Of a stretch of 54,515 nucleotides of DNA, positions 7,248-54,051 are shown piece after piece. A model generated the notes under the pieces. That model did not search any database and was not told the DNA's origin. It saw nothing but the letters and a program-made list of their open reading frames with translations. The stretch is from positions 1 to 54,515 of the forward strand of contig DATKZC010000007.1 in assembly GCA_035528175.1 (NCBI GenBank), given 5' to 3'. How positions within the stretch are numbered: the first letter of the stretch is position 1; the number at the start of each line of letters is the position of its first letter. The position numbers and the translations under genes are program-made. The DNA comes from Minisyncoccota bacterium (lineage in GTDB: Bacteria; Patescibacteriota; Minisyncoccia; RBG-13-40-8-A).

Positions 7248-8870
7248 TCAATTTACCTTGGTAATTACTTTTATTTTATCTTTGTTTGCGGGGACTTTCT
7301 TTACCCAGAATGGCCAGAATATGACTTTTGCTGTTTCAATCTCCGGAAGCGAAGAAAGGTATTTTCTTACATCCTCTTCGGATTTACCGGCTAAATCATT
7401 TTTGATTTTTTGCTCGTCAATACTCGTAATTGATTCAGCTTCAACTTTACAGGAAAGATCGACTTTGCCCTGGGCTAAATTAAGTTTTGAAACACTGTAA
7501 TCAACTTTAATTGTGGAAAATAATAAAGTTCTATTATTGGGAATCTCGTCGCTGACGGTTTTTTCTATTAAATACAAAGCATCTTCTTCTTTGAATGCCA
7601 ATCCGGAAACTTTTATCCTTACCGTAACAATAAATTTTTCTCCAGGCTGGTTTGCTTTTAAATTCGAAGAGGATTCTATGATCTCTGTGGCCTGGCCGTT
7701 ATCAAGTATTTTCAGGCCTGCTGAAATTTTTGCCTGGAAATCTTTCAGAGCTGCTTCTTTTAATCCCAGAATTACAATATTGGCTGCTCCCTTTATATCG
7801 TCTGCTGTGGCAACTTTCATTTTTCCTTTTGCACCTCCGGTCATCGGTTCAGTTGATTTGCCGTAAAAAGCAGTATATTTAGGACCTCCTTCAAATCCTG
7901 GAATAGTGAAATCAGATGGCCCGATATTATATGCTTCTCCTGCCTCGTCTGCCTCTACATCCACTTCTTTGTTGCTGGCAATGATTTTGCCTTCATCTAT
8001 TGTTGCTCCAGGAATCGTTACTGTACTGATTAATCTGAAAATCTTGCCGTCTTTTGAACGAAATCTGGTTGTTTTTACCAGTGTCTGCGGGCTTGAACTA
8101 AATTGGTTATAGACGGTTATTTTCCCTCTTGCCTTTTCTAAAACATCCCTTTCTCCCGTACTCGGGAATTCCCTGCTCTCCATTTTTTCCGTCTCAAAAT
8201 ATTGGGCCGGAATTATTGCCTCTTCGGCTTTTATCGAATCAACACTTTTATCGGCTGTAATTTCGTCTTCAAACTGCACTTTTTCTCTTTTGGGATTAAT
8301 AACGACCTGGGCACGCGGAAAAATAAAGAAAACAACCCAAGCCAATGCCAATAAACAAAGGACGACCAATAATATTTTAAGTGTAGTTGGGGTAAAAAAC
8401 TTAAATTTAAAACGCCTTATTTTCTTTGGCTTCTCCGGCCTTTCCGGTAGTGGTTCAGAAAAAATTGATTCTGTTCTTGATTCGGGTTCTAACTCTGGTT
8501 CTGGTTGAATTTCCTCTATTGCTTCTTCTTCTTCTATTTTTTCTTCTTTTCTTTGAATCATTATATCAGACATTATTCTTAAATCAACTATTCTTCCTGC
8601 CCTTTCCGGCCTTCTTGTTAATTCTTGTTTTTCTGTTAATTTTATACCCACTTGCTTTGCAAGTTTCTTGATAAATTCGTCGGAAGTTGCTATATAGATA
8701 TTTTTGCCCAAAAATCCTGATTCTTCTTTTAAAATTCTTAAATTAATAATACTGCGCAGAGCAGTTGTCCCCAAAGGAATAACTAAAACAATATTAGTGT
8801 CTTGGCCTAATTTTATTTTATCTATTATTGAAAAAAATTCATCATTTTTTCCTAAAAGAAGATTTTGCAT
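7248..8870 (-). CDS. Hypothetical single-pass membrane protein
   Basis: 540 aa. It has a roughly 90-aa N-terminal cytoplasmic domain, an E/P-rich linker, the TM helix LKILLVVLCLLALAWVVFFIF and a roughly 350-aa extracytoplasmic beta-rich domain. Only 2 nt separate it from the FtsA-like gene. I recognise no family with confidence. Confidence 0.6.
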   Translation of the reverse strand: MQNLLLGKNDEFFSIIDKIKLGQDTNIVLVIPLGTTALRSIINLRILKEESGFLGKNIYIATSDEFIKKLAKQVGIKLTEKQELTRRPERAGRIVDLRIMSDIMIQRKEEKIEEEEAIEEIQPEPELEPESRTESIFSEPLPERPEKPKKIRRFKFKFFTPTTLKILLVVLCLLALAWVVFFIFPRAQVVINPKREKVQFEDEITADKSVDSIKAEEAIIPAQYFETEKMESREFPSTGERDVLEKARGKITVYNQFSSSPQTLVKTTRFRSKDGKIFRLISTVTIPGATIDEGKIIASNKEVDVEADEAGEAYNIGPSDFTIPGFEGGPKYTAFYGKSTEPMTGGAKGKMKVATADDIKGAANIVILGLKEAALKDFQAKISAGLKILDNGQATEIIESSSNLKANQPGEKFIVTVRIKVSGLAFKEEDALYLIEKTVSDEIPNNRTLLFSTIKVDYSVSKLNLAQGKVDLSCKVEAESITSIDEQKIKNDLAGKSEEDVRKYLSSLPEIETAKVIFWPFWVKKVPANKDKIKVITKVN

Positions 8871-8872
8871 AT

Positions 8873-9964
8873 TTACTGATTTTGAATTAATTTTATCACT
8901 CTTTTAAAAATGGGCAAAAATATATTTTCTCCGCCCGGCCAATCCTCATAAACTCTTTTTAGTGCCAAGCGGGAATCATCTTCCAATTTTAAAATCTTAA
9001 ATTCCTTTTCTTTTTTTAAACTGCTTTCTATAAGAGGAAATTTAGATCCCTCGCCACAGAGAAAAATCTTAGAAGGCAAGAATTTATATTTCTTGTAAAA
9101 ATCCTCCAAAACGAACTTCACCCCTTTCTGCCACGAAGAAATATTCGGTGCAAACAATTTATCCAGCTTTCTTTTAACTTCCTGACTTACTTCTTTATTG
9201 CTGTATTTATTCTTCACGGTTTCTGCTTCTGATGGCTTCATTCCCAAAAAATCAGCTAAAACCCGGGTAAGCGCTTGTCCACCTAAGTGAAAACTTCTTG
9301 TTTCTATTACTCCTCCACCATTTTCTATTAAAGTAATTTCGGTGGTTTTCCCTCCGATATCAATAATCAACGCATTTCCTTTTTGTGATTTTTCTAAATC
9401 AAGATAGGAAAACAAGGCATAAGAAATCGGGACAAAACCAACTGATTTTAATTTTAGTGTTCCAATTAATTTTTCTAAACCATCTAAGTTTTTGGAAGCA
9501 ATATATGTATTATAAACACTCAAACAAATTTGCTGGCCATGCGCTCCAATCGGGTCAATAATTGAACGACCGTCAATTTTAATATCAATTACAAATGCAT
9601 CTATTAACCTGGCGTCCGTATCTTTGAACTCTGTTTCCAGAACAAATTCCTTTCTTATAATATCCAACGCTTTCCATTCGATTTTCTGGATTAAATATTT
9701 TAATTCCGCCATATCAAATTTCTGATTTGGATTTTCTCGTTTATAGCAGAGTGTAATTGTTTTACCTTTTAAAATATCGTTTCCGATCCCCCAAAAAACT
9801 CCTTCTGGTTTAATGCCTGATTTTTTCTTTAAAATTTTAATTACTTTCTGGCAAGCTAAAAAAATGTCTTCAGAATTAGATTTTTCAACCGATGTTCTGG
9901 TCTCAGAAATCAATCCTTTTACAAATTGCGTTCCAATATCTAAAACAATAATGTTTTTCATCAA
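8873..9964 (-). CDS. Actin-like ATPase of the FtsA/PilM family (divergent)
   Basis: 363 aa. Phosphate-1 motif VLDIGTQFVKG, phosphate-2/adenosine motifs IIDIGGKTTEI and FLCGEGSKF, and an overall FtsA-like layout. Confidence 0.7.
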   Translation of the reverse strand: MMKNIIVLDIGTQFVKGLISETRTSVEKSNSEDIFLACQKVIKILKKKSGIKPEGVFWGIGNDILKGKTITLCYKRENPNQKFDMAELKYLIQKIEWKALDIIRKEFVLETEFKDTDARLIDAFVIDIKIDGRSIIDPIGAHGQQICLSVYNTYIASKNLDGLEKLIGTLKLKSVGFVPISYALFSYLDLEKSQKGNALIIDIGGKTTEITLIENGGGVIETRSFHLGGQALTRVLADFLGMKPSEAETVKNKYSNKEVSQEVKRKLDKLFAPNISSWQKGVKFVLEDFYKKYKFLPSKIFLCGEGSKFPLIESSLKKEKEFKILKLEDDSRLALKRVYEDWPGGENIFLPIFKRVIKLIQNQ

Positions 9965-9987
9965 TTATTATTATAACAGAAAATATT

Positions 9988-11727
9988 TTATTTTAAAACA
10001 GCCTTGACACGACGCACGCCGGCTGATGATGATTCTTCTTTTAAGATTTTAAAATGTCCGAGCTGGCTGGTTCTTTGCACGTGCGGGCCAGAGCATATTT
10101 CCAAACTGAAAGTTTGCCCCGAGGAATTCGAGGGGGCACTTCCAATTGAATAAACTTTCACTTTGTCTCCATATTTACTTTCAAAAACTCCCATTGCGCC
10201 CATTTTTCTTGCCTCGTCCAAAGGAACCTCACAACAATCAATAGGCAGATTCTTTTTGATTTGTTCATTAACTATATCTTCAATTTCTTTCAATTGTTCT
10301 TTGCTCACTTTTTCCGAGTGGGAAAAATCTAATCTTAATCTTTCCGCAGTAATGTTTGAACCTTTTTGGAAAACATGTTCGCCCAAAACTTTGCGTAATG
10401 CAGCCAAAAGTAAATGCGCAGCAGTATGAAGTTTTGTCACCTGTTCTGAATTATCCGCCAATCCTGATTTAAACTTCCCAGCAGTAGCTGTTCGGGATAA
10501 TTGTTGATGTTTGGCAAATTCCTTTTGAAATCCTTTTGTAATTTCCTCCTCATCGTATTTTATCCCCTTGTTTTTTAATTCTTCTAAATATAGTTCAAAA
10601 GGAATTCCATTGGTTGAAAAAAAATTAAAAGCTGTTCGCCCCGTAATATTCTTTTCTAGTTCTTCTAGTCCCCTTTTAAGTGTTTTAGCAAAAACATTTT
10701 CTTCTTGTATTAGTTGTTTAATAATAAAATCTTTGTTATTTTCCAGTTCTGGCCATTCGTTTTTCATTAAATCAATTACTAATTTTCCAATTTCGTAAAT
10801 AAATAATTTTCTAATTCCAATTTTTTGACCATGTCCAATTGCTCGCCTAATTAATCTTCTTGCCGTGTATCCTTGCTCAATATTTGACGGCACAACTCCA
10901 TCCGCAATAATAAAAACTGATGCACGAATATGGTCAGCAATAATTCTCTCAGATTTTTTATCATAATCAGTTGCCATTTTTTTGATTGCTTCAATAATTG
11001 ATTTTAATGGCTCAATTTCATAAACACTTTTTGTATTATTCCTGCCTGCCGGCAGGCAGGTTAAAATCGCCACAGTTCTTTCAACTCCCATACCCGTATC
11101 AACATTCTTTTGCTTTAATGGTTCATACTTGCCATCCGCGGTTTTATTATATTCCATAAAAACATCATTCCAGATTTCCACGCCATCATAAAACATTTCA
11201 GTGCACGGACCACAAGGACCTGTCTTTCCGGCTGGTCCCCAAAAATTATCTTCTTTATCTAAAAATTTGATTTTTTTAATTCCCAATGATTTCCAGATTT
11301 CAGCGGATTCCAAATCCCGCGGGATTTGTTCCGAGCCTGTCGAGGAACCAGCGAAAACTGAAACTGAAATTCTTTTTTTATCCAATCCTAATTCTTTAGT
11401 CAAAAACTCTAAACTCATCTCTATTGCTTCTTTTTTCCAATAACTTCCAAAACTCCAATTTCCCAGCATTTCAAAAAAAGTTAAGTGCCAGTCATCGCCA
11501 ACTTCATCAATATCGCTGGTTCTAATACATTTTTGCACATTAACTAATTTATCCCCTGCCGGATGCTTTTCGCCCAATAAATACGGCACTAATGGATGCA
11601 TTCCTGCGGTGGTAAATAAAACCGTAGGATCATTTTCCGGAATTAAAGAAGCAGAAGGAATAATTTTATGTCCCCTGCTCTGAAAAAATTTCAAATATTT
11701 TTCTTTTAAATCTTTTGTTGTAATCAT
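9988..11727 (-). CDS. alaS: Alanine--tRNA ligase, short form lacking the C-terminal C-Ala/DHHA1 domain
   Basis: It has the class II catalytic core (FTTAGM, GNWSFGDYWK-like), the editing-domain HTAAHLL...CSGPHV Zn motifs, and ends about 40 aa later. I prefer the ATG at 11727 (the track's TTG is at 11730). Confidence 0.92.
   Translation of the reverse strand: MITTKDLKEKYLKFFQSRGHKIIPSASLIPENDPTVLFTTAGMHPLVPYLLGEKHPAGDKLVNVQKCIRTSDIDEVGDDWHLTFFEMLGNWSFGSYWKKEAIEMSLEFLTKELGLDKKRISVSVFAGSSTGSEQIPRDLESAEIWKSLGIKKIKFLDKEDNFWGPAGKTGPCGPCTEMFYDGVEIWNDVFMEYNKTADGKYEPLKQKNVDTGMGVERTVAILTCLPAGRNNTKSVYEIEPLKSIIEAIKKMATDYDKKSERIIADHIRASVFIIADGVVPSNIEQGYTARRLIRRAIGHGQKIGIRKLFIYEIGKLVIDLMKNEWPELENNKDFIIKQLIQEENVFAKTLKRGLEELEKNITGRTAFNFFSTNGIPFELYLEELKNKGIKYDEEEITKGFQKEFAKHQQLSRTATAGKFKSGLADNSEQVTKLHTAAHLLLAALRKVLGEHVFQKGSNITAERLRLDFSHSEKVSKEQLKEIEDIVNEQIKKNLPIDCCEVPLDEARKMGAMGVFESKYGDKVKVYSIGSAPSNSSGQTFSLEICSGPHVQRTSQLGHFKILKEESSSAGVRRVKAVLK
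10111..10137 (-). repeat. GC-rich element copy (PSxSSGQ family) in-frame in alaS, encoding APSNSSGQT
   Basis: The coding strand GCCCCCTCGAATTCCTCGGGGCAAAC aligns with copies in dnaK, the CsaA-like gene, cysS and the spacer at 38603. Confidence 0.6.
11041..11060. repeat. 20-nt perfect palindrome CCTGCCTGCCGGCAGGCAGG in-frame in alaS (CLPAGR)
   Basis: Self-complementary, 80% GC, and identical to 12687-12706 in mnmA. Confidence 0.8.
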
Positions 11728-11734
11728 CAATTTA

Positions 11735-12219: not shown

Positions 12220-13245
12220 TTAAAGAATCACTCCTCCACCCATGAGTTCACCGTCTAAGTAAAACACCGCACTTTGACCAGAGGTAATTGCGCGCTGCGG
12301 TTTTTTAAAAACAATTTTACTGCCTTTAATTATTGCATCCGCCATTTTTGCCATGGAACGAATTTTAACTTTACATTTTCCTGTATATGGTTTTCCACTA
12401 ATCCAATTCATATTTTTCACAGCCATTCCTTTTTGCAATAAATCTTTTTTTGATTTGGATACAATTAAAGTATTTTTTTTATAGTCCTTTTTCACTACAT
12501 AATACGGCCCCCCGCTTAATCCTATGTTTTTTCTCTGTCCGATTGTATAAAAAATTAAGCCCTTATGCTCACCAATTTTTTTATTATCCATCGTAATAAT
12601 CGGGTCTGCCACGCAACTGCTGGGACGGGGTAAATCAAAACAAATATCCTGACTTTCTTTTTTATTGAATACTGGTAATTTGAATCCCTGCCTGCCGGCA
12701 GGCAGGTTTTTTGCCAATCCCCTAACTTGTTCTTTGGTATAATCGCCAAGCGGAAATAAAATCTTTGTTAATTGTTTTTGTTTTAAGGTCCAAAGAAAAT
12801 AACTTTGGTCTTTTTTTATGTCTTTAGCAATAAATAATTTTCCGTCTTTAATTCTGGCGTAATGGCCGGTTGCGATAAAATCAGCTTTTAATTGCACCAT
12901 TTTTTCTAATAAAAACCTGAATTTAATATATTTATTGCATTCTACGCACGGATTTGGCGTATTGCCTGATTCATATTCTTTAAGGGTATAATCAATCACC
13001 TGTTTTTTGAATTCTTTGCGCACATCTAAAACTTTAAAATCAATTTTTAGTTTTTTGGCGACAATCTTCGCATCCTGCGGATTACTATTCTTATGCATTA
13101 ACATAAAAATACCGACGACATTATATCCTCCGCCCAAGGCAGACAAGTCGTTTTTTAACATGGCAGCAGCAACAGAACTATCTACTCCGCCACTCATTGC
13201 AATAATTACCCTGCCTCGCCGGCAGGCGGCCCTTTTATTATCCAT
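12220..13245 (-). CDS. mnmA: tRNA-specific 2-thiouridylase
   Basis: 341 aa. It has the PP-loop IAMSGGVDSS, the catalytic CNK.IKF region and DQSYFL. Confidence 0.92.
   Translation of the reverse strand: MDNKRAACRRGRVIIAMSGGVDSSVAAAMLKNDLSALGGGYNVVGIFMLMHKNSNPQDAKIVAKKLKIDFKVLDVRKEFKKQVIDYTLKEYESGNTPNPCVECNKYIKFRFLLEKMVQLKADFIATGHYARIKDGKLFIAKDIKKDQSYFLWTLKQKQLTKILFPLGDYTKEQVRGLAKNLPAGRQGFKLPVFNKKESQDICFDLPRPSSCVADPIITMDNKKIGEHKGLIFYTIGQRKNIGLSGGPYYVVKKDYKKNTLIVSKSKKDLLQKGMAVKNMNWISGKPYTGKCKVKIRSMAKMADAIIKGSKIVFKKPQRAITSGQSAVFYLDGELMGGGVIL
12687..12706. repeat. 20-nt perfect palindrome CCTGCCTGCCGGCAGGCAGG in-frame in mnmA (LPAGRQ)
   Basis: 20/20 identical to the alaS copy but read in a different frame. 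Confidence 0.8.
13210..13230. repeat. Degenerate copy of the palindrome (CCTGCCTCGCCGGCAGGCGGC) at the mnmA 5' end, encoding AACRRGR
   Basis: It differs from the 20-mer by one inserted C and one lost A. It lies just upstream of the PP-loop codons. Confidence 0.6.
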
Positions 13246-13702: not shown

Positions 13703-14826
13703 AATCCCTCCTCTTTTAATTTCTCAATTAATTCTTTTTCTTTTTTAGATAATTTTTGCGGGATTTTGATTTTGATACGCACATACTGGTCGCCTCGGCC
13801 ATAAGAATTCAATCTTGGCATACCTTTTCCTGATAATTTAAACATTTTCCCGCCTTCTGTGCCTGCAGGAATTTTTAATTTTAAATCCCCTTCTAATGTT
13901 GAAATATCAATCTTATCTCCTAATACTGCCTGCGAAAATTTTATTTCTGCATCACAATAAATATCGTCTCTTTTCCTGATGAAAATCTTATGCGGCTTTA
14001 AACGTATGCGCACGTATAAATCTCCTGATATTCCGCCTTTTTTCGCTACCTCGCCTTTTCCTGGAAATTTTATTGTCTGTCCATTATCAACTCCTACCGG
14101 TAAATCAACTTTAATTGTTTCAATTTCACTTACCCTTCCTGTGCCCTTACATTCTTTACATTCTTTTTCATGCAGTTCGCCTTCGCCAGAACACTTCGGA
14201 CAAGTTATAACCTGCGAAAATGTTCCGAAAAAAGTTCTTTTTGTCTGTTGAACTTGGCCATTGCCCCCGCATTCAGGACATTTTTTCTTTCCACTTCCAG
14301 GCTCTCCGCCTGTTCCTTTGCAGTGTTTACAAATAATATATTTTTTTAAATTAATTTCTTTTTCAATGCCTGTAAATGCCTCTTCTAAAGTAATTTCCAT
14401 ATCAACCACAATATCTTTGCCGTGTTCCTTTCTCGTTCTTCTGCCTCCTCCACCTCCATTAAAAAATTGGCTGAAAATATCAGAAAAACTTCCGCCTCCA
14501 AAAATATCTCCTAAATCCCAGCCCGAGGATGGTCCGCCTTGGGCGGAAAATTCTCCTCCTTCTTGATAATTCCTGAAAATATCCTCCCAACTCATACCCG
14601 CACCTCCAAAACCAGCTTGATCAAAGCTTGACCCGAACTGGTCGTATTGCTGACGCTTTTCATCATTGGATAAAACTGAATATGCTTCATTAACTTCTTT
14701 AAACTTCTTTTCATCCCCACCTTTATCCGGATGATGTTGATGAGCAAGCTTTCTGAAAGCTTGCTTTATCTCTTCTTTATTCGCATCTTTATTTACTCCA
14801 AGTGTCTTGTAATAATCTTTACTCAT
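13699..14826 (-). CDS. dnaJ: Molecular chaperone DnaJ
   Basis: J domain with HPD (KLAHQHHPDKGG), a G/F-rich region and four CxxCxGxG zinc-finger repeats. Confidence 0.95.
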   Translation of the reverse strand: MSKDYYKTLGVNKDANKEEIKQAFRKLAHQHHPDKGGDEKKFKEVNEAYSVLSNDEKRQQYDQFGSSFDQAGFGGAGMSWEDIFRNYQEGGEFSAQGGPSSGWDLGDIFGGGSFSDIFSQFFNGGGGGRRTRKEHGKDIVVDMEITLEEAFTGIEKEINLKKYIICKHCKGTGGEPGSGKKKCPECGGNGQVQQTKRTFFGTFSQVITCPKCSGEGELHEKECKECKGTGRVSEIETIKVDLPVGVDNGQTIKFPGKGEVAKKGGISGDLYVRIRLKPHKIFIRKRDDIYCDAEIKFSQAVLGDKIDISTLEGDLKLKIPAGTEGGKMFKLSGKGMPRLNSYGRGDQYVRIKIKIPQKLSKKEKELIEKLKEEGL

Positions 14827-15600: not shown

Positions 15601-17520
15601 TTATTTCTTTTCTGTTTCCCCTTCGGGTATATCCGGATTCTTATCATCTTTTTTCTGCGCGTCTTGCTGGGCTTTATAGAGTTCTGTCCCAACTTTCTGA
15701 ATTGCTTGAGATAATTCATCAGATGCTTTCTTGATTTCACTCACGTAGGAATCTTTTCCGCCCGAGGCGGACTCGCCTTGGGCGAGTATTTTTTTCAGCG
15801 CCTCAATTTTTTCTTCAATTTCTTTTTTGTTCTCTTCTTTTATTTTAGCACCAAATTCTTTTATTGTCCTTTCGGTTGTAAAAACCAAAGTATCGGCGGT
15901 ATTTTTAACATCAACAATTTCTTTTTTCTTCTTGTCTTCTTCGGCGTGGATTTCCGCATCTTTTTTCATTTTTTCAATATCTTCTTTTGACAAACCCGAA
16001 GATGCTTCAATCCTGATTGATTGGATTTTATTTGTGGCTTTATCTTTTGCCGTAACGCTTAAAATCCCATTCGCATCAAGGTCAAAAGTAACCTCAATTT
16101 GGGGAATGCCTTTTGGAGCCGGTGGAATGCCATCCAAAATAAATCTGCCCAATGTTTTATTGTCAGCAGCCATTGGTCTTTCTCCCTGTAGAACATTAAT
16201 TTCAACTGATGGCTGATTATTCGCAGCAGTAGAAAATACTTGCGTTTTAGCAGCAGGAATAGTTGTATTTTTTTCAACCAGTTTCGTCATCACTCCGCCA
16301 AGAGTTTCAATTCCTAATGATAAAGGAGTGATATCCAGAAGCAAAACATCTTTCACATCGCCCTGGAAAATTCCTGCCTGTACAGCAGCGCCCGCTGCAA
16401 CCACTTCGTCAGGATTAATATCTTTATGCGGCTCCTTTCCGAATAATTCCTTTACTTTTTGCTGTATTAACGGCATCCTGGTCTGGCCTCCTACTAAAAC
16501 TACTTCATCAATATCGGACATTTTAAATCCTGAATCATCAACAACTTGTTTAGTGATTTTTGTCGCTTTATCAATATACTCTCCAACTAAATCTTCAAGT
16601 TTTGCGCGGCTAAATTTAATATTTAAGTGTCTTGGCCCATCTGCTCCGCTGGTAATAAAGGGAATATTTACTTCTGTTTCCATTGCCGATGATAATTCGT
16701 GTTTTGCTTTTTCTGCTGAATCTTTTAGTCGTTGCAAAGCCAGCTGGTCTTTTGATAAATCAACTCCTTCCTGTTTTTTAAATTCATCAACCAGCCAATG
16801 CATAATAATCTGGTCAAAATCATCGCCTCCTAAATGCGTATCTCCGCCTGTTGCTTTCACTTCAACTGTATCTTTGGAAACTTCAAGCACTGAAACATCA
16901 AATGTTCCTCCGCCGAAATCAAATACCACAATCTGCTCATCCTTTTTCTTATTTAAGCCATAAGCCAAAGCAGCTGCAGTCGGTTCATTGATAATTCTTT
17001 TCACTTTTAAGCCGGCGATTTCTCCTGCATCTTTGGTTGCTTTTCTCTGCGAATCGTTAAAATAAGCAGGAACAGTGATTACTGCTTCTTCTATTTTTTC
17101 TCCTAAACGGTCTTCGGCATCTTGTTTAAGTTTCTGTAAAATCATTGCGGAAATTTCAGCTGGGCCATACCATTTAGCTTGCCCTGAGCTTGTCGAAGGG
17201 TCACCCAGCTTGATTTCCACCGCTCCTTCTTTTGATTCTCTGATTTCATAAGGTAAAAGTTTTTTATCGCGCTGAACTTCGGCATCAGAATATCTCCTGC
17301 CGATTAATCGCTTTACCGAATAAATTGTGTTTTTGGAATTAGTTACTGCCTGTCTTTTTGCTAAGAGACCAACAAGCCGTTCATTGGCTTTTGAAACAGC
17401 AACAACAGAAGGAGTTGTTCTGTTTCCTTCTTTATTTTCAATTATTCTCGGCTCGCCTGCTTCAACAATCGCCATTGCCGAATTAGTCGTGCCTAAATCA
17501 ATACCTAATATCTTTGACAT
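15601..17520 (-). CDS. dnaK: Molecular chaperone DnaK (Hsp70)
   Basis: 639 aa with canonical [18 protein letters not shown] and [10 protein letters not shown] motifs. Confidence 0.97.
15754..15783 (-). repeat. GC-rich double hairpin in-frame in the dnaK C-terminal lid region, encoding [10 protein letters not shown]
   Basis: Coding strand reads CTCGCCCAAGGCGAG + TCCGCCTCGGGCGGA, two adjacent short hairpins. Its composition resembles the CGCCAAGG..CGGCG family. Confidence 0.5.
17176..17202 (-). repeat. GC-rich element copy (PSxSSGQ family) in-frame in the dnaK N-terminal domain, encoding DPSTSSGQA
   Basis: The coding strand GACCCTTCGACAAGCTCAGGGCAAGC aligns with the alaS, CsaA-like and cysS copies. 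Confidence 0.6.
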
Positions 17521-17544: not shown

Positions 17545-18096
17545 TTATTTACTTATTTTAACTTTACTTGCTCTTATAACCTTTCCATTTAATTTATACC
17601 CTTTTTGAATCTCTTTGGCGATAATGTTGGTTTCAGTCCCTCGACCAAGCTCGGGACTAATTTCCACTTCGCCTACGGCTTCGTGGAAATTAGGATCAAA
17701 TTTTTCTCCAACAGCATCAATTTCTTCAACTCCGCTGGATTTTAGAATATTTTTAAATTGATTGTAAATCTGTTTAATTTCTTCTTGCCCGAGACCCTCT
17801 GCGTCTTTATGATTATTTTCAAAATGCTTCATTGCCAATTCAAAACTATCCAAAACCGGCAAGATTTCATAAATCAAGCCCTCATTAGCAAACTTAAAAA
17901 TCTCGGAAATTTTCGCTTCCTGTTCTTTTTTATAATTTATCAAATCAGCTTTTGCTCTCTGCCACCCAGCCAAATATTCCGCGCGTTCCTGCTCGGTTTT
18001 TTTCAACTGCTCTTTAATCTTTTTAACCTTATCTTCTACTTTTTCAGAGCCGTCTTCGCTTACATATTCAATTTTTTCCGTCTTTTCTTTACTCAT
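17545..18096 (-). CDS. grpE: Nucleotide exchange factor GrpE
   Basis: 183 aa with a coiled-coil N-terminus. It carries R..AD..N.RKR-like (RAKADLINYKK) and LPVLD.FE.A motifs and sits between hrcA and dnaK. Confidence 0.93.
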   Translation of the reverse strand: MSKEKTEKIEYVSEDGSEKVEDKVKKIKEQLKKTEQERAEYLAGWQRAKADLINYKKEQEAKISEIFKFANEGLIYEILPVLDSFELAMKHFENNHKDAEGLGQEEIKQIYNQFKNILKSSGVEEIDAVGEKFDPNFHEAVGEVEISPELGRGTETNIIAKEIQKGYKLNGKVIRASKVKISK

Positions 18097-18107
18097 AATA
18101 TATTCAT

Positions 18108-18133
18108 CCGCCTACGCCAAGGCTTCGGCGAGA
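18108..18133. repeat. GC-rich hairpin element (CGCCAAGGCTTCGGCG core) filling the hrcA-grpE spacer
   Basis: CCGCCTACGCCAAGGCTTCGGCGAGA, with a 6-bp stem CGCCAA/TTCGGCG-type hairpin at 18115-18130. It aligns with the in-gene copies in recR and trpS. Confidence 0.65.
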
Positions 18134-18583
18134 CTAGGAGAAATCCTCCAACATTTCTTTTAACTTATTTATTAATTCTATATTATAATCGTATCTCATT
18201 CTCGTCGGACTGATTAAACCGATGATTTCGCGCTTTTTATGCAATGTTTTATGCTCTGTGATAATCAAGGAATAACTGTGAGTTCTAATCATCTCAACTC
18301 CAACTTGTCCGCATAAATGATTGAACTGCTTTTCAAATATATCCTTAGACGGCTGACCAATAAAAAACCGATACGCTTTTTCTGTAGGAATTCTTCCCGC
18401 AGACGTGTGCGGCTGAATTAAATAACCCGAGCTTTCCATTTCCGTCATTTCATTTCTTAAGGTAGCAGAACTTAACCCGAGATCGCGGGCTAATGCTTTT
18501 GAACTTACTGGCTTGGGATTATCAACATATTCCTTAACAATAAGCTCCAAAATTTTCTGCTGCCTTTCCGTCATTTTATCCAT
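18134..18583 (-). CDS. hrcA: Heat-inducible repressor HrcA, miniaturised (149 aa versus about 340 aa typical)
   Basis: It has an N-terminal winged helix (RQ..IL..IV..Y.....PVSS..LA.......SSATLRNEM..ME..GYL..PHTSAGRIPT.KAYR) and the conserved C-terminal IG.I.PTRM.Y motif. The central roughly 190 aa are absent. Confidence 0.85.
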   Translation of the reverse strand: MDKMTERQQKILELIVKEYVDNPKPVSSKALARDLGLSSATLRNEMTEMESSGYLIQPHTSAGRIPTEKAYRFFIGQPSKDIFEKQFNHLCGQVGVEMIRTHSYSLIITEHKTLHKKREIIGLISPTRMRYDYNIELINKLKEMLEDFS

Positions 18584-20779: not shown

Positions 20780-22164
20780 GATTATTCAACACTTTAACCA
20801 GAAAAAAGGAAATTTTTAAGCCGATTAAAAAGGGCCGTATAAGAATCTATACTTGTGGTCCGACTGTTTATTCATACCAGCATATCGGCAATTTAAGGTC
20901 TTACATCTTCTCCGATATTCTGAAAAGGGTTTTCTTTTACAATAAATATAAAGTCAAACAAGTGATGAACATAACCGATGTCGGACATCTAACCTCTGAT
21001 GCTGACGAGGGCGAAGACAAAATAGAAAAAGCTGCCAAGTGCGAAAATAAAAAAGCAGAAGATATTGCAAATTATTATTGGAATATATTCAGAAGGGATT
21101 TTAAAAAACTTAATATTCTTGAGCCGGATATTTGGTGCAAAGCAACCAAACACATCAAGGAGCAAATTGAACTTATAAAAAAGCTTGAGAAAAAAGGATA
21201 CACTTATCGCACCTCTGATGGAATTTATTTTAACACTGCAAAATTCAAGAATTACGGCGAAATTGCCCAATTAAAAAGACAAAAATTACAAGCTGGAAAG
21301 AGAATTGATTTAGGTGAAAAGAAGAACATTACTGACTTCGCTTTATGGAAGTTCTCGCCTTCGACCCTTCGACCCGGCTCAGGGCCTAAACGGCAGCAGG
21401 AATGGGATTCGCCTTGGGGAATTGGATTTCCTGGATGGCATATTGAATGCTCGGCAATGTCGATGAAGTACCTGGGAGAGCATTTTGATATTCACACTGG
21501 CGGAATCGACCACATTCCCGTACATCATACTAATGAAATTGCTCAATCCGAGGCCGTAACCGGAAAAAAATTCGTGAATTTTTGGATGCATGGGGAATTT
21601 CTAAACTTTAAAGGCAAAAAGGTTTCAAAAAGCACAGGCGGACTCTACACAATTTCGGATTTAGAGGAAAAGGGATTTAATCCCCTTGCTTTCCGCTATC
21701 TGACTTTTATCACCCATTACCGCGACCCGTTGAATTTTTCTTTAGAATCCTTGCAAAGCGCGCAAGATGCTTATTTGAGATTGAAAAACTTAGTTCAAGA
21801 GAATAAAGATAAAAGAATTAAAAAAGAATATTTGAAAGAATTTCACAAAGCCATTAATGATGACTTAAATATGCCCAAAGCGCTTAGTATCATCTGGAAG
21901 ATATTAAGAGATAAGAAACCCGCCCGCAACGCCAGCAAGTTGTCTTGTGTGGTGGGCGAGATGGACGAAGTTCTAGGCTTAGATTTACTAAAAAAAGAAG
22001 AATTCGAAATCCCGGAACAAATCAAAAAACTTCTTCTTGAACGCGAACAAGCAAGAAAAAATAAAAATTGGAAAGAATCAGACCAACTCCGCGATAAAAT
22101 AAAATCCCTTGGATATTTAATTGAAGACATGTTGAGTGGACAAAAAATAAAGAAAATAATATAA
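20770..22164 (+). CDS. cysS: Cysteine--tRNA ligase
   Basis: HIGH-type motif (YQHIGNLRS), the WHIECSAM zinc site and KMSKS-type KVSKS. I prefer the ATG at 20770 ([14 protein letters not shown]...), which overlaps the corA stop by 10 nt. The track starts at 20704. Confidence 0.93.
21358..21390 (+). repeat. Extended GC-rich element in-frame in cysS, encoding [11 protein letters not shown]
   Basis: CCTTCGACCCTTCGACCCGGCTCAGGGCCTAAA has the same CCTTCGA...CTCAGGGC ends as the PSxSSGQ family, with a longer centre. Confidence 0.55.
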
Positions 22165-25106: not shown

Positions 25107-25730
25107 ATGCTGCCACGACCAATTCAAAATTTAATTGATGAATTTGCCAAACTGCCGTCTGTTGGCCCAAGACAGGCCGCCAGATTTGTTTTCCATCTAC
25201 TTGACCAACCCAAAGAAGAAATAGAAAAATTCGCCAAGAAATTATTCATCCTGAAAAAAGTAAAACAATGCGCTTTCTGTAATCGCTTTACAGAACTTCC
25301 GACTCTCTGCGAAATCTGCAAAAATACCCATCGTGACAGAACCACAGTTTGTATTGTGGAAAAAGATACCGATATAGAATCAATCGAAAAGACAAAAAGA
25401 TATAATGGCATTTATTATGTAATCGGCGCAGAAGATGAAAAACTGCAATTAGGGCGATTAAAAAATTTGATTGAAAGGATAAAAAAAGCCCGCCTTCGCC
25501 AAGGATTCGGCGAGGCAAGCAATAAAGACCTGAAAGAAATAATCATTGCAACCGACGCCACAACCGAAGGCGAAACCATTGCCTTATACTCAACGCGACA
25601 TTTGGAGGAATTAAAAAAAAGTTATCCTCAATTAAGGATAACTCGTCTTGGCCGCGGATTATCTACTGGCTCGGAACTGGAATACATGGACGAGGATACT
25701 TTAGCAAATGCCCTGCTTGGCAGAAAGTGA
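25107..25730 (+). CDS. recR: Recombination protein RecR
   Basis: 207 aa. HhH N-terminus (LP.VGP..A.R), a C4 zinc finger (CAFCNR...CEIC) and a Toprim domain (IIATDATTEGE). Confidence 0.93.
   Translation: MLPRPIQNLIDEFAKLPSVGPRQAARFVFHLLDQPKEEIEKFAKKLFILKKVKQCAFCNRFTELPTLCEICKNTHRDRTTVCIVEKDTDIESIEKTKRYNGIYYVIGAEDEKLQLGRLKNLIERIKKARLRQGFGEASNKDLKEIIIATDATTEGETIALYSTRHLEELKKSYPQLRITRLGRGLSTGSELEYMDEDTLANALLGRK
25488..25520 (+). repeat. GC-rich hairpin element in-frame in recR, encoding ARLRQGFGEAS
   Basis: GCCCGCCTTCGCCAAGGATTCGGCGAGGCAAGC aligns base-for-base with the trpS and hrcA-grpE spacer copies. Confidence 0.7.
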
Positions 25731-38600: not shown

Positions 38601-38602
38601 CC

Positions 38603-38632
38603 CCCCGACTACGCTCGGGGCAAGTCCCTTGC
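38603..38632. repeat. Intergenic GC-rich element copy (two hairpins) of the ...CTCGGGGCAAG family
   Basis: CCCCGA-ctacgc-TCGGGG followed by GCAAG-tcc-CTTGC. The string GACTACGCTCGGGGCAAG aligns with the alaS and dnaK in-gene copies and with GACTCCGCTCGGGATAA in ftsK. Confidence 0.6.
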
Positions 38633-38639
38633 GAAAACT

Positions 38640-41238: not shown

Positions 41239-41245
41239 ATTTGTT

Positions 41246-41705
41246 CCGATACAAATCTACAAATGGTATACGAATGCTACAAATCTTAATTAAGAATTCT
41301 TTTTGGTTTTATATAAGAATCTCTAAAATTCACAATTAACCCTAATCGCAACTTAGCGGCTCCAAGATATCTTTTCATCTGATAATAATCTTCTCTTAAA
41401 ATAAACTTTTTCGCCTTTAAATCAATTATGATTTTATCATCTATTAAAAAATCTACTTTATTCCCCTTGATTTCATAATCGTCATTATGAATTGGCACCT
41501 CTTTTTCTCTCTCGTATTTTATATTGTCTTTTTTAAATTTAATCTCAAGTAAATCAGCATACTGTCTTTCTTTACAAAATCTGCCTAATTCGTTATGTAC
41601 ATCAAAGAATAGACCCGTTAATTTATAAGAAACATCTGGATAAATAATTTTCACATTTTTTCTCATTTGTAGATTCGTATAAAAATTCGTTGATTCGTAT
41701 CGGGG
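41246..41705. mobile_element. GxxExxY-nuclease cassette bounded by roughly 40-bp imperfect inverted repeats
   Basis: The left end CCGATACAAATCTACAAATGGTATACGAATGCTACAAATC (41246-41285) matches the reverse complement of the right end (41667-41705), CCCCGATACGAATCAACGAATTTTTATACGAATCTACAA. Identity is about 80%, and the ORF fills the interior exactly. Confidence 0.6.
41286..41666 (-). CDS. GxxExxY protein (PD-(D/E)XK nuclease superfamily)
   Basis: 126 aa. LTGLFFDVHNELGRFCKERQYADLL fits the G....E..Y helix, and D.(D/E)xK-like VDFLIDDKIIIDLKA and GLIVNF are typical of the family. Confidence 0.75.
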   Translation of the reverse strand: MRKNVKIIYPDVSYKLTGLFFDVHNELGRFCKERQYADLLEIKFKKDNIKYEREKEVPIHNDDYEIKGNKVDFLIDDKIIIDLKAKKFILREDYYQMKRYLGAAKLRLGLIVNFRDSYIKPKRILN

Positions 41706-41719
41706 CTACAGTGCTAAAT

Positions 41720-42097
41720 TTAAATTATAAGCACTGCAGCAAAAATTAAAAGCCCCAGTAGAACTAGAGGCATGACCAGCCAAAGCGCGAAAAATATCGC
41801 TCCGACAACAGTTACTAAAATTAAAAATACAATACCAACTAAAATTGTAATCAATCTCACCAAAAATCCCAAACCGCGGGAAATTAGATTAAAGGCTAGG
41901 TAATCAAGAAATTTTTTAATATCCAATCCTCTCGGTTTACGGGTAATGTCTCTTTTCCAAGGCGCGAATAATGTTTTTAAAAGTAAGGGAATGGAAAAAT
42001 AATTCAGAGCAAAAATAACAAAATTCCTCCAAGCATCTAAAACGTTCCCAGCCGCTTCGCCATAATACCATTTCCAAAACACCAACAAAATAGCCAT
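41720..42097 (-). CDS. Hypothetical small membrane protein
   Basis: 125 aa with about 3 TM helices and no motif recognised. Confidence 0.55.
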   Translation of the reverse strand: MAILLVFWKWYYGEAAGNVLDAWRNFVIFALNYFSIPLLLKTLFAPWKRDITRKPRGLDIKKFLDYLAFNLISRGLGFLVRLITILVGIVFLILVTVVGAIFFALWLVMPLVLLGLLIFAAVLII

Positions 42098-46419: not shown

Positions 46420-46761
46420 ATGATAAACTATGATGATTTTCAAAAATTAGATATACGCATTGGAACGATTTTGGAAGCAGAAAAAATTGAAAATGCTGAT
46501 AAATTATTAAAGTTAAAAGTAGACTTAGGTCCCTCGAGTACTTCAGGACAACCAGAACTGCGTGTTCTGGTTGCAGGAATCGCAGAATCTTACAAACCGC
46601 AATCCTTGATTAATAAACAGATTCCTATTTTAATTAATTTAGAACCACGCACTTTGCGCGGAGTTGAAAGCCAGGGAATGATTCTGGCATGCGTTGTTAA
46701 TAAAAAAGCTATCTTATTAAAACCAATTAAAAAGGTTCCAAATGGAACTAAAATAAAATAA
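46420..46761 (+). CDS. tRNA-binding domain protein (CsaA/EMAP-II-like)
   Basis: F.KLDIR.G.I..AE.I..ADKLL.L.VDLG, then GI...Y.P..L..K......NL.PR.LRGVES.GMIL are typical motifs. The ATG at 46420 has TATAAT (46408-46413) 6 nt upstream. Confidence 0.8.
   Translation: MINYDDFQKLDIRIGTILEAEKIENADKLLKLKVDLGPSSTSGQPELRVLVAGIAESYKPQSLINKQIPILINLEPRTLRGVESQGMILACVVNKKAILLKPIKKVPNGTKIK
46531..46551 (+). repeat. GC-rich element copy (PSxSSGQ family) in-frame, encoding PSSTSGQ
   Basis: GGTCCCTCGAGTACTTCAGGACAACC aligns with the dnaK and alaS copies. It interrupts the conserved VDLG-E..R.IV segment. Confidence 0.6.
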
Positions 46762-51804: not shown

Positions 51805-54051
51805 TTAAAACTCATCTTCTTTGGGTTCAGATTCTTTCAGCTTTTCTTCATCTTCCTCAATTTCCTCTTCTATTTCTTCTTTTTCTTCCTCATTTATGTT
51901 TTCTTCAACAACTTCATCTAAATCGCTTAATGGTTCTCTCGACTCCGCTCGGGATAAATCTTCTTTTCCTATTAAAACATCTCTTGGCTTGGCTCCGTCT
52001 GCAGGACCGACAATCCCCTGCATTTCTAGCATGTCCAATAAACTTGCCGCGCGCGCATAACCGATTCTAAACATTCTTTGTAAATATGATGCTGAGGCCT
52101 TGCCAGTTTTAATTACCATATCTTTTGCCTCATCTAACAACGGGTCATCCAATGCTAATCCACTGCTACCCATTACTCCTTTTTCTTCCGGCGCTTTAGT
52201 GATTTCTTCCTCATACTCAACCTCACCAGCTTCCTTTTTTAGAAATTTAACCACGCGCTGGACTTCTTTTTCAGAAACATAAACACCCTGAATTCTGCGT
52301 GGCTTGCCCACATCACCTGCCATAAACAACATATCGCCATTGCCGAGCAATCTCTCGGCTCCAGACGTATCCAAAATAGTTCGAGAATCAACATTTGAAG
52401 CAACCTGGAAAGCAAGTCTACAAGTAATATTTGCTTTAATCAAACCAGTAATGACTTCAACAGACGGGCGCTGAGTAGATAAGACCAAATGAATGCCCAC
52501 AGCGCGCGACATTTGCGCTAAACGCACAATCGAACCTTCAACTTCTTTACCATAAGCAGCCATAATGTCAGCAAGTTCATCAACAATAATTACAATAAAC
52601 GGCAGAATATCAGCCGGAGATTTTTTCACAATTTTCTCATTATAAGAAGCCAAATCTCTTGCTCCTATACTGGATAAAAGCTTATACCTCTCCTCCATTT
52701 CTTTAATCGCCCATTTAAAAGCATTGATGGTCTTATTCGTATCAACAATAACCGGAGTTAATAAATGAGGGATACCATTATATAAAGGAAGCTCAACTCG
52801 TTTCGGGTCAATCATAATAAATTTTAATTCCCAAGGTGACTTTTGATAAAGCAAGCTGCTGATAATTGTATTGATGCAAACGCTTTTTCCGGTTCCTGTT
52901 GCTCCGGCAATCAACATATGCGGCATTTTAATAAGATTTGCCCAGACAGATTCACCCGCAACATCGCGACCTAAAGCAAGATTAAGATTGTGGCCATTTT
53001 TCTTATAATTGTATTCGTCCATCATATTCCTCAAACGGACTAAAGTTGCGCTCTTGTTCGGAATTTCAATGCCAACCAAGGAACGTCCGGGAATCGGCGC
53101 TTCAATCCTAATAGGATGAGCTGCCAAAGATAAAGAAATATCGCGGTGCAAAGTAGTAATTTTTGAAAGCTTTACCCCGCCCGCGGGTCTTAAGGTATAT
53201 TGAGTAACGGTTGGACCAACATTAACTTCTGCCATTTCCACTGGAATACCGAAATTATTCAATGTTTTTTCAATAATACTCTGATTAAGTTTTATATCCC
53301 CGCTCGCCGGGCATCCTCTATCCTCTTCCAGTAAATCCAAGGGCGGAAAAGTATAATCCTTGATATTTGTAGGAGTTGTGGCTAATAATTCTTCCCTATT
53401 TCCTTCTTCCGATTCTTTTACATCAAGCTTTTGCTTAGAAAATATATTTTTCACCAAACTGGCAACCTTCTTTTCTGACTGGTCAAAACCGATTCCTTTG
53501 ATTTCCTTAGAAAGTTTTTCTGCAATTACTTCTTCCTCTTCTTTCTCTTCTTTTGGGGCCCTTTTTAAAGGAATATTAAAAGCAATAAGCACGGAAATAA
53601 AAAGCCCGGCTGCAAAAACAACCAAACTCGCCCACTTACCAATAAGTTTTAAAAATGGCCAAGAAAAAATATATCCGAGCCAGCCGGCAATACGAGTATC
53701 ATTCGGAAAAAATATCTGAATAATCGCCAGAAAACAAAGAATAAAAAGAAGTATTCCTAATAAAGTTGAAAGATAAACATTTTTGTGAATCTCTTTTAAA
53801 ATTGCGATACCTGCAGAGACAAAAGCCAATGGCACCAACCACAGGCATTTACCAAAAATAAACCTTGAACCATCAAGCAGATACTTACCCAACACCCCAC
53901 TGGCTGACTGGAAACTTAAAACAAAAAGTACTGCTAGAGTGAAAAGCACAACCACGATTACACCGTGTTTGGTTTCGGGGCTGATATTCAAATAAACCTT
54001 CTTTTTTTCTCTATATTCTTTCTTGTATTTCTTGCGCTTTCTTTTCGACAT
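51805..54051 (-). CDS. ftsK: DNA translocase FtsK/SpoIIIE
   Basis: 748 aa with 4 N-terminal TM helices, a linker, a motor domain (Walker A GATGTGKS, Walker B VIIVDELAD) and a gamma wHTH (ASYLQRMFRIGYARAA.L.D.LE). The tail is acidic. Confidence 0.94.
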   Translation of the reverse strand: MSKRKRKKYKKEYREKKKVYLNISPETKHGVIVVVLFTLAVLFVLSFQSASGVLGKYLLDGSRFIFGKCLWLVPLAFVSAGIAILKEIHKNVYLSTLLGILLFILCFLAIIQIFFPNDTRIAGWLGYIFSWPFLKLIGKWASLVVFAAGLFISVLIAFNIPLKRAPKEEKEEEEVIAEKLSKEIKGIGFDQSEKKVASLVKNIFSKQKLDVKESEEGNREELLATTPTNIKDYTFPPLDLLEEDRGCPASGDIKLNQSIIEKTLNNFGIPVEMAEVNVGPTVTQYTLRPAGGVKLSKITTLHRDISLSLAAHPIRIEAPIPGRSLVGIEIPNKSATLVRLRNMMDEYNYKKNGHNLNLALGRDVAGESVWANLIKMPHMLIAGATGTGKSVCINTIISSLLYQKSPWELKFIMIDPKRVELPLYNGIPHLLTPVIVDTNKTINAFKWAIKEMEERYKLLSSIGARDLASYNEKIVKKSPADILPFIVIIVDELADIMAAYGKEVEGSIVRLAQMSRAVGIHLVLSTQRPSVEVITGLIKANITCRLAFQVASNVDSRTILDTSGAERLLGNGDMLFMAGDVGKPRRIQGVYVSEKEVQRVVKFLKKEAGEVEYEEEITKAPEEKGVMGSSGLALDDPLLDEAKDMVIKTGKASASYLQRMFRIGYARAASLLDMLEMQGIVGPADGAKPRDVLIGKEDLSRAESREPLSDLDEVVEENINEEEKEEIEEEIEEDEEKLKESEPKEDEF
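51931..51957 (+). repeat. GC-rich element copy inside ftsK in antisense orientation to the gene, read as LSRAESREP
   Basis: The plus strand GACTCCGCTCGGGATAA aligns with the intergenic GACTACGCTCGGGGCAAG at 38607-38624. Confidence 0.45.

Follow-up and report, generated by a model that had tools for sequence, protein, structure and literature searches.

The stretch of DNA considered here, hereafter the window, comprises 54,515 nt (35% GC) of contig DATKZC010000007.1 from a Minisyncoccota bacterium (Patescibacteria; assembly GCA_035528175.1) and holds eight copies of a short GC-rich hairpin, designated family A, which is probably a mobile mini-insertion element. A DnaK search places the bacterium in the vicinity of Candidatus Portnoybacteria. 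Seven of the eight copies are intragenic, a habit opposite to that of the mostly extragenic repetitive extragenic palindromes (REPs). The dnaK copy (17176..17202, minus strand; pattern at 17179-17199), GACCCTTCGACAAGCTCAGGGCAAGCT, lies in the sense orientation, is read as DPSTSSGQA (frame PSTSSGQA) and matches exactly the 24-nt consensus C-CCTTCGACAAGCTCAGGGCAAG-C. The alaS gene carries two sense copies on the minus strand, the first (10111..10137; pattern at 10114-10134) being a 27-nt insertion in the tRNA_SAD/editing region read as APSNSSGQT, and the second (11326..11352; pattern at 11326-11346) a degenerate copy in the N-terminal half read as SSTGSEQ. A gene with a tRNA-binding domain (PF01588; Trbp111, MetRS C-terminal domain or CsaA-like) has a sense copy of seven residues, PSSTSGQ (46531..46551, plus strand), and in cysS (21354..21387, plus strand; pattern at 21366-21387) the sense copy is read in another frame, TLRPGSGP, with its 5' half, CCTTCGAC, in tandem duplicate. 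Two copies on the plus strand are antisense to their genes: a 21-nt insertion in grpE (17638..17661; pattern at 17638-17659), encoding ISPELGRG and forming a 6-bp stem AGTCCC/GGGACT with a hairpin fold of -4.0 kcal/mol, and a family A-like copy in the C-terminal tail of ftsK (51936..51957), encoding LSRAESRE at aa 699-706, just past FtsK_gamma (aa 635-694, Pfam). The eighth copy (38602..38634, plus strand; pattern at 38602-38623) lies in the spacer between a clpB-like gene and mraZ, has the form CCCCGA-CTACGC-TCGGGG and is directly followed by a second small hairpin, GCAAG-TCC-CTTGC, the tandem pair folding at -6.6 kcal/mol; a terminator-like site was looked for at this copy and none was found.

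The names of all the copy-bearing genes are supported by Pfam, and the interrupted open reading frames (ORFs) all stay open with complete Pfam domains, as in the in-frame insertions typical of Rickettsia palindromic elements (RPEs). Four coding copies read P-S-x-S-S-G-Q, the cysS copy LRPGSG and the antisense copies SPELGRG and SRAESRE; the TGA-containing frame is used by none of the coding copies of the window. Rfam recognizes only two tRNAs in the whole window, and the surroundings of the spacer copy, searched permissively, match no credible family.

Both strands of the window were scanned with the pattern CCYTCGA-N3-7-YTCRGGRCAA, allowing at most two mismatches, and the eight matches obtained compare with a mean of 0.2 and a maximum of 2 in 200 second-order Markov simulations of the window, a figure that is optimistic because the pattern was derived from the same data; the presence/absence and cross-genome evidence given below is independent of this count. 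The 3' half alone, with at most one mismatch, gives 15 matches vs 7.0 +/- 2.6. The first-pass annotation of this DNA had proposed a recurring nucleotide element that encodes PSxSSGQ in housekeeping genes and has non-coding and antisense relatives, and this is borne out: the five sequences that it quoted are found at the coordinates and on the strands that it gave, and their similarity is far above that due to composition, as the simulations indicate. The cysS copy that it named was located at 21354-21387 (+), but in the other frame mentioned above, and the copies in alaS at 11326-11346 (-) and in grpE at 17638-17661 (+) are additional to it, as are the wide distribution, the covarying stems and the further insert families described below.

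That the copies are insertions is seen by comparing, at the codon level, the syntenic loci of three close relatives, L001 (GCA_018897295.1, with a DnaK 93% identical), L002 and L003 (DnaK 92% identical). In dnaK, L002 and L003 carry the empty allele CTG GGC GAA AAA TGG, and the window and L001 carry the filled allele CTG GGT GAC CCT TCG ACA AGC TCA GGG CAA GCT AAA TGG, with a net gain of 24 nt (8 aa). The 21-nt insert of grpE is found in the window only, being absent in L001, L002 and L003; the 27-nt insert of alaS copy 1 is also restricted to the window, being absent in L001, with EKER alone at that site in L002. By contrast, alaS copy 2 is common to the window and L001 (DPSTCSEQ there), while L002 is without it (GE-DG). 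The cysS gene of the window has 24 nt (8 aa) more than that of L002, and the inserted DNA is 71% GC. Wherever orthologues are comparable, the copies are thus clean insertions of 21-27 nt, which in size and in presence/absence correspond to the small dispersed repeats (SDRs, units of 21-27 nt) of cyanobacteria. No target-site duplication is visible at the compared junctions, at variance with the definition of miniature inverted-repeat transposable elements (units of 70-300 bp that have terminal inverted repeats and duplicate their target site), and no junction microhomology is evident at the dnaK, alaS and grpE junctions. It is clear from these comparisons that copies arise at new sites and are gained and lost between close relatives.

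A census of indels against the three relatives gives at least 12 window-specific inserts of 12-30 nt and 52-86% GC in about 20 kb, located in dnaK (two), grpE, alaS (three), mnmA (three), dnaJ, recR and cysS (two); in the relatives themselves, indels are mostly AT-rich. A burst of GC-rich mini-insertions has therefore occurred in this lineage, and family A is one of the families involved. The window is matched at 100% identity by contigs in two ENA assemblies and one Logan assembly, all made from other samples, and the inserts are therefore no assembly artefacts.

Alignment of DnaK to the E. coli protein (PDB 1DKG) puts the insert between V105 and K106 of the latter, a gain of 8 residues at a beta-hairpin turn of nucleotide-binding subdomain IB; the earlier annotation had rightly placed it in the N-terminal ATPase domain as a segment that E. 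coli is without, putting the difference at about 9 residues. In the AlphaFold (AF2) model of DnaK residues 1-390, the loop 107-114 joins strands 100-106 and 115-118, with pLDDT <50 at residues 108-112. The Trbp111/CsaA-like protein has its 7-residue insertion at the turn KVDLG|...|E(L/V)R relative to 1MKH and 1RQG. Judging from such alignments and models, the copies of the window would sit in beta-turns, surface loops or tails, and the host proteins DnaK, AlaS, GrpE, CysS, tRNA-binding protein and FtsK probably stay functional, carrying an extra loop.

The conserved unit is the 24-nt C-CCTTCGACAAGCTCAGGGCAAG-C, with unconstrained flanks save for an enrichment of A at position -2 in low-GC genomes. 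It is laid out as a short GC stem (CCCT/AGGG, swapped freely for other complementary pairs) closing an 11-nt loop, TCGACAAGCTC, and followed by a CAAGC tail. When copies are gathered by the 11-nt loop alone, with the seed matches left out, 43% of them have a stem of at least 4 bp vs 9% with shuffled partners; the stems comprise at least 8 types, among them CCCT/AGGG (22 copies), GGCT/AGCC (6), TCCT/AGGA (5) and CGGT/ACCG (3). Compensated stems occur in the window too (GCCCC/GGGGC in alaS, AGTCCC/GGGACT in grpE and TCCC/GGA in the tRNA-binding gene), and all eight window copies share the hairpin topology, with stems of 4-6 bp, in agreement with REPs, which are imperfect palindromes of 20-40 nt able to form a stem-loop. 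What is conserved beside the stem is CAAG(C), read as CTTG in the opposite direction, and differs from the GTAG or CGTC tetranucleotide of REPs. An IS91-type CAAG/GAAC target was considered and dropped, as the tails vary (GGGCAAG, GGGACC, GCCCGAACGG, GGGCAAACGG).

The same sites are occupied repeatedly in distant relatives. An insert at the same DnaK turn is present in 18 of 120 homologues, patchily across lineages of the candidate phyla radiation (CPR), and on a neighbour-joining tree of the 120 homologues it requires at least 13 state changes, with 'absent' as the root state; the segment is therefore far from being conserved across phyla, as it is missing from 102 of the 120 and already at 92% identity. 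The insert DNA was examined in four DnaK homologue genes, three of which have variants of family A (CCT TCG GCA AGC TCG GGA CAA; TCG ACA AGC TCA GGT CAA; CCT TCG AAG GGC TCG GGG CAA), and the fourth a different hairpin with the same GGGGCAAG-type tail (CCCCGC-CAATA-GCGGGG-CAAG). Between lineages, this DNA is 67-96% identical (20 of 21 nt between the window and homologue P0058), vs 36-47% at the 4-fold degenerate sites of conserved residues, which are saturated. The genomes concerned have only 24-36% GC at their 4-fold sites, yet the rare GC-rich codons TCG, GGG and CCT of the insert are identical across genomes. As the codons flanking the inserts differ, whole segments were not exchanged, and identity above that of saturated sites therefore means either that the inserts are young and independent or that the DNA itself is under constraint. 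In AlaS, inserts of the PSTxSGQx type occupy the C-terminal loop, the site of 10111-10137, in about 33 of 120 CPR homologues, and those of the DPSTxSGQ type the N-terminal site (11326) in about 18 of 120; PSTSSGQA is found in the same loop as copy 1 of the window in a genome of 68% GC (L109).

Some observations concern the same two proteins. The DnaK homologues P0043, P0061 and P0063, which are not clustered on the tree, have a 13-residue insert, GQ(S/P)RLADASRREA, after ESKE near residue 98, which is probably another GC-rich element. In the window (9988-11730) and in its relatives, AlaS is short (546-580 aa), stops right after tRNA_SAD and has no C-Ala extension. The alaS gene of L001 (locus 8433-10157) has its own insert of 39 nt and 74% GC, GGPASTRGDESTR, with the palindrome TCGACTCG...CGAGTCGA, absent in the window and in L002.

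Outside this group, at least 119 stretches in a set of species-representative genomes, belonging to more than 20 phyla, contain the exact 22-mer CCYTCGACAAGCTCRGGGCAAG, as do 13 stretches of IMG/VR viral contigs (56-70% GC) whose flanks are unrelated; by our own estimate, which assumes uniform base composition, chance would give about 0.3 and 0.03 occurrences, respectively. Locus GC of the genome carriers ranges from 31 to 70%. The CPR carriers include Saccharibacteria, Parcubacteria, Nealson-, Jorgensen-, Portnoy-, Davies-, Nomura- and Adlerbacteria, Peri-/Peregrinibacteria and Microgenomates; the others include Acidobacteriota, Chloroflexota, Planctomycetota, Bacteroidota, Cyanobacteria, Deinococcota, Spirochaetes, Elusimicrobia and Omnitrophota, as well as Alpha- and Deltaproteobacteria, and the cultured carriers include Sphingopyxis granuli NBRC 100800, Citromicrobium bathyomarinum, Chakrabartia godavariana and Microcoleus sp. 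In-frame copies lie in housekeeping genes elsewhere too, clearly so for AlaS, which aligns with the gene of the window; further carrier genes are read, from their translated flanks, as putative PNPase, AspRS, GyrB and RNase J-like protein genes. Within long ORFs, 71 copies are sense and 20 antisense, and the PSTSSGQ frame is used by 43 of the 91. In genomes other than that of the window, the element also forms clean insertions of 23-24 nt within tandem heptamer arrays (L076, a Microcoleus, L080 and L009), stands in tandem arrays of period 24 (L032, L034) or, in sphingomonads, occurs as inverted doublets, and at some loci either half of it is partly duplicated, CAGGGCAAG arrays being among these half-element repeats. 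Many composite half-element arrays, (CCTTCGAC)n(AAGCTCAGGGCAAGC)n, are present at four loci (L017, L027, L031, L056) of a single Pseudomonadota metagenome-assembled genome (JBCCYM01, 38-44% GC).

When 5,426 E. coli genomes are searched with a dimer of the element, nothing matches at E values up to 10, and a plasmid collection gave a single weak match, in Novosphingobium. An origin from a universal RNA (rRNA, tRNA or tmRNA) was considered and dropped, there being no match in E. coli and the resemblances to the tRNA T-loop/D-arm and to the tmRNA 5' end being short. At non-coding copies no consistent partner was seen among the neighbouring genes, a GIY-YIG gene and a PDDEXK_3 gene being encountered once each. 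A preference for the loops of larger, locus-specific hairpins is modest only (flanking inverted repeats of at least 7 nt at 7% vs 2.2%) and was likewise abandoned.

Several known systems resemble family A. SDR1-8 of heterocyst-forming cyanobacteria are reportedly dispersed mobile repeats of 21-27 nt with a predicted hairpin, whose mobility is said to follow from presence/absence at orthologous sites and which reportedly insert within tandem heptamer repeats; no transposase is known for them. Family A shares with them its size, hairpin, dispersal, presence/absence at orthologous sites and precise insertion into repeats, SDR5 reportedly lying inside HIP1 and the present 22-mer inside heptamer arrays of Microcoleus and of several other unrelated genome and viral contigs. 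Unlike the SDRs, which are compared here by their description and are described as confined to a subset of cyanobacteria, it is identical across more than 20 phyla, and for this reason exceeds their description; moreover, in the window it is found mostly in frame inside essential protein genes. The RPEs of Rickettsia are said to be selfish elements inserted in frame in genes that stay functional, with the encoded segments on protein surfaces. RPE-1 is about 100-150 bp long and confined to one genus with a reduced, AT-rich genome. In-frame location in intact genes of an AT-rich genome is common to both, but the present element has 24 nt, is cosmopolitan and resides in a Patescibacteria host. 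The mobile GC clusters and double-hairpin elements of fungal mitochondria are scattered in compact AT-rich genomes, some of them in coding or rRNA genes, and are polymorphic between strains. They are similar to family A as GC-rich hairpins in a compact AT-rich genome and differ from it in being organellar, about 30-80 nt long, lineage-specific and often accompanied by short target duplications. DNA uptake sequences and uptake signal sequences (DUS/USS), which are dense, species-specific motifs arising by substitution, are unlike the present copies, which are insertions, number 8 per 54 kb and extend to more than 20 phyla.

REPs carry a GTAG or CGTC tetranucleotide at one end (PMC3733652), and intragenic in-frame REPs have been reported in Opitutus terrae and Rickettsia conorii (Di Nocera et al. 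2013, PMC3733652). Like REPs and their doublets (REPINs), which are linked to REP-associated tyrosine transposases (RAYTs) (PMC3733652; Bertels and Rainey 2011, PMC3116915), family A is a multi-copy, GC-rich stem-loop with a conserved tetranucleotide beside the stem (CAAG in the forward and CTTG in the reverse orientation); some REP families are common to several species, and inverted doublets are matched by those of the present element in sphingomonads. In contrast to REPs, its stem has only 4-6 bp, it conserves the 11-nt loop and varies the stem, the reverse of typical REPs, and it is exactly identical across phyla; no RAYT gene was seen within the 54.5-kb window or among the relatives' annotated genes. 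Family A therefore falls outside the definition of REPs, as it has no GTAG/CGTC tag, is mostly intragenic and conserves the loop and not the stem. Full-text searches of the literature with the nucleotide string and six peptide strings gave no match, and the CPR and repeat literature gave no relevant description (an eLife paper on the genetic code that surfaced is unrelated). In kind, such elements are already known from REPs and SDRs; what would surprise a specialist is the letter-for-letter spread across phyla and the repeated insertion at the same turns of essential proteins. In size and in spread, family A appears to rank among the extremes of mobile DNA, as one of the smallest elements and one of the most widespread.

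Taken together, the clean insertions, the turnover between relatives, the burst in the lineage, the DNA identity above neutral and the occurrence in unrelated genomes and viral contigs lead us to consider family A as probably a cosmopolitan, non-coding, non-autonomous mobile mini-insertion element of about 24 nt, REP/SDR-like in character. The visible copies would then be the survivors of selection in a gene-dense Patescibacteria genome of 35% GC, where the filter would favour a length that is a multiple of three, one of five stop-free frames (mostly the hydrophilic PSTSSGQA) and a position in a loop, as 7-9 extra residues would be harmless in beta-turns, surface loops and tails. The weakest step is propagation, which may proceed as single-stranded DNA, with an enzyme supplied in trans that would recognize the hairpin and the flanking tetranucleotide as in REP/RAYT and IS200/IS605 (HUH Y1) systems; by analogy with these, an HUH-type mechanism may be put forward tentatively. 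A bolder and rather doubtful version is that the 24-nt hairpin and sister families such as CCTGCCTGCCGGCAGGCAGG (see below) might be an 'infectious' ultra-small element, active today across most bacterial phyla and phages, served by a widely shared or housekeeping hairpin-acting enzyme and endowed with a real target preference, this last feature being suggested by the repeated independent insertions at the same DnaK and AlaS turns. If this held true, no smaller or more broadly distributed mobile DNA would be known, and the conserved proteins of streamlined bacteria would have in it a general source of loop insertions.

Several observations weigh against a mobile nature. Neither a transposase nor another candidate mobilising gene was found in the 54-kb window or in the neighbourhoods examined, and the genes annotated on the window's contigs and on those of its relatives include no member of the Y1_Tnp family; the GTAG/CGTC tag and the extragenic habit of classical REPs are missing, and letter-for-letter identity across phyla is hard to reconcile with trans-acting enzymes that are specific to lineages. 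No mobility event was seen directly: near-identical strains carry identical copies, and the three contigs from other samples, all identical to the window, carry no information on filled vs empty alleles at the strain level. The fold energies are weak (-1.3 to -6.6 kcal/mol), with z-scores mostly no better than shuffles, so that it is the covariation that speaks for the stem, and the evidence is comparative, not energetic. Finally, the repeated insertions at the same codons could reflect target specificity, gene conversion or selection, which are here indistinguishable.

A serious rival, of low probability in our view, retains the same element and dispenses with a dedicated transposase, its spread resulting from errors of host replication and repair such as template switching between copies, gene conversion over short patches or the capture, where DNA is nicked or gapped, of a stable hairpin oligonucleotide, with passage across phyla via taken-up DNA or phages. 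The failure to find a transposase, the clean boundaries devoid of target duplication and the occurrence in viral contigs all fit this explanation, as do the half-elements present as tandem partial duplicates (CCTTCGAC twice in cysS, CAGGGCAAG arrays), which are expected from slippage, and the similar behaviour of unrelated hairpin families, which suggests that the hairpin matters more than the sequence. However, template switching requires microhomology at both junctions, which is not evident at dnaK, alaS and grpE, and the strict conservation of the 11-nt loop across phyla is left unexplained. The converse possibility, that the sequence is a nucleic-acid signal useful to the host (a protein binding site, a DNA-uptake-type tag or an RNA hairpin tuning translation or mRNA decay), each copy being kept by selection, would account for the conservation of the insert DNA well above synonymous sites, for the covariation of the stems, for the repeated occupation of the same loops in many lineages and for the prevalence of the sense orientation in long ORFs (71 vs 20). 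We consider it unlikely, since the copies arise by insertion and not by substitution, are missing from relatives with a DnaK 92-93% identical, lie in genes in both orientations and are found in unrelated host genes, in tandem heptamer arrays and in tandem self-arrays (the related family B even in tRNA genes), at the low density of 8 per 54 kb, with no Rfam family matched and with E. coli genomes devoid of them.

Selection could also bear on the peptide PSxSSGQ itself, for instance if many proteins had acquired in it a flexible linker of Ser/Gly type or a site for modification, given that the PSTSSGQ frame is the commonest (4 of the 7 coding copies of the window and 43 of 91 elsewhere) and that every mapped copy is in a surface loop. 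This is very improbable, as other frames are in use (LRPGSG in cysS, PELGRG and SRAESR in antisense), the element also stands in non-coding DNA and heptamer arrays, the rare codons TCG, GGG and CCT are kept identical in spite of 24-36% GC at 4-fold sites, and close relatives do without it; both readings by host benefit are thus disfavoured by the two orientations, the several frames, the non-coding copies and the relatives lacking them. As to a chance GC-rich similarity, or an assembly or chimera artefact, it is true that the motif was defined after the copies had been seen and that the source genomes are mostly metagenome bins, but eight copies against 0.2 expected, the exact 22-mer in at least 119 genome stretches against about 0.3 estimated, the identity of the contigs from other samples, the cultured isolates among the carriers (Sphingopyxis granuli NBRC 100800, Citromicrobium, Chakrabartia, Microcoleus) and the preserved reading frames reduce its probability to almost nothing.

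Should the mobile nature of family A be confirmed, a 24-nt DNA would be able to cross phyla unchanged, which would imply that the mobilising activity is very general or that transfer follows an unusual route. It would also account for short Ser/Gly-rich or Arg/Ala-rich loop insertions in the proteins of CPR/Patescibacteria, insertions that would inflate alignments, mislead both gene callers and phylogenetic analyses, and give rise to spurious "hypothetical proteins" (e.g., FDKLRAS, LRQAQGK and PELVEG, from other reading frames of the element). The copies would furthermore map, in nature, where DnaK, AlaS, GrpE, CysS and other essential proteins tolerate insertions, and their presence/absence would give a fine-scale strain marker for uncultured lineages.

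At least two further families of GC-rich mini-inserts are present in the window besides family A. Family B is a perfect 20-nt palindrome, CCTGCCTGCCGGCAGGCAGG, which is inserted with one additional base in alaS (11041..11061, TCLPAGR; carried by 2 of 120 homologues) and is also present in mnmA (12682..12705, LPAGRQG), where a family B-like palindrome, CCTGCCTCGCCGGCAGGCGGCCC, lies at 13213..13233 (RAACRRG). The family B inserts of alaS and mnmA are in frame, and close relatives are without them. Its 20-mer is found in 35 viral contig stretches of 38-68% GC, in heptamer arrays, hairpin loops and tRNA genes. The viral tRNA genes concerned (L174, ~515-534; L144, ~8616-8635; L167, ~2284-2303) harbour it in one case between GGTA and GAGC of the D-arm and in two cases in the variable loop of a tRNA with the CAT anticodon, which suggests that family B hairpins are tolerated as extra arms in structured RNAs.

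Family C (GCCTTCGCCRAGGMTTCGGCGRG) is represented by a 30-nt insert in recR, GCCCGCCTTCGCCAAGGATTCGGCGAGGCA (25488..25517, plus strand), encoding ARLRQGFGEA and absent in the 91% identical RecR of L002, and by GCCTTCGCCAAGGCTTCGGCGRG-type hairpins in the tRNA-synt_1b gene (47544-47589) and at the grpE/hrcA junction (18107-18135). It shares the skeleton CTTCG..CAAG..GGCAAG with family A, and related 23-mers occur in 13 viral contig stretches of 51-68% GC. Mini-hairpins of a simpler build make up a 30-nt insert of 77% GC (10 aa) in the C-terminal lid of dnaK (15757..15786, minus strand), composed of two 15-nt hairpins, CTCGCC-CAA-GGCGAG and TCCGCC-TCG-GGCGGA, a 21-nt hairpin insert TCCGCC-CAA-GGCGGA in dnaJ (14530..14550, minus strand; FSAQGGP) and an inserted 15-nt mini-hairpin of the TCCGCC-CAA-GGCGGA / CTCGCC-CAA-GGCGAG form in mnmA (13129-13149); all three are absent in L001, L002 and L003. 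Elsewhere in the window, a small PDDEXK_3 (PF13366) gene (41286-41666, minus strand) has short ATTCGTA/TACGAAT-like repeats on both sides (41240-41720).

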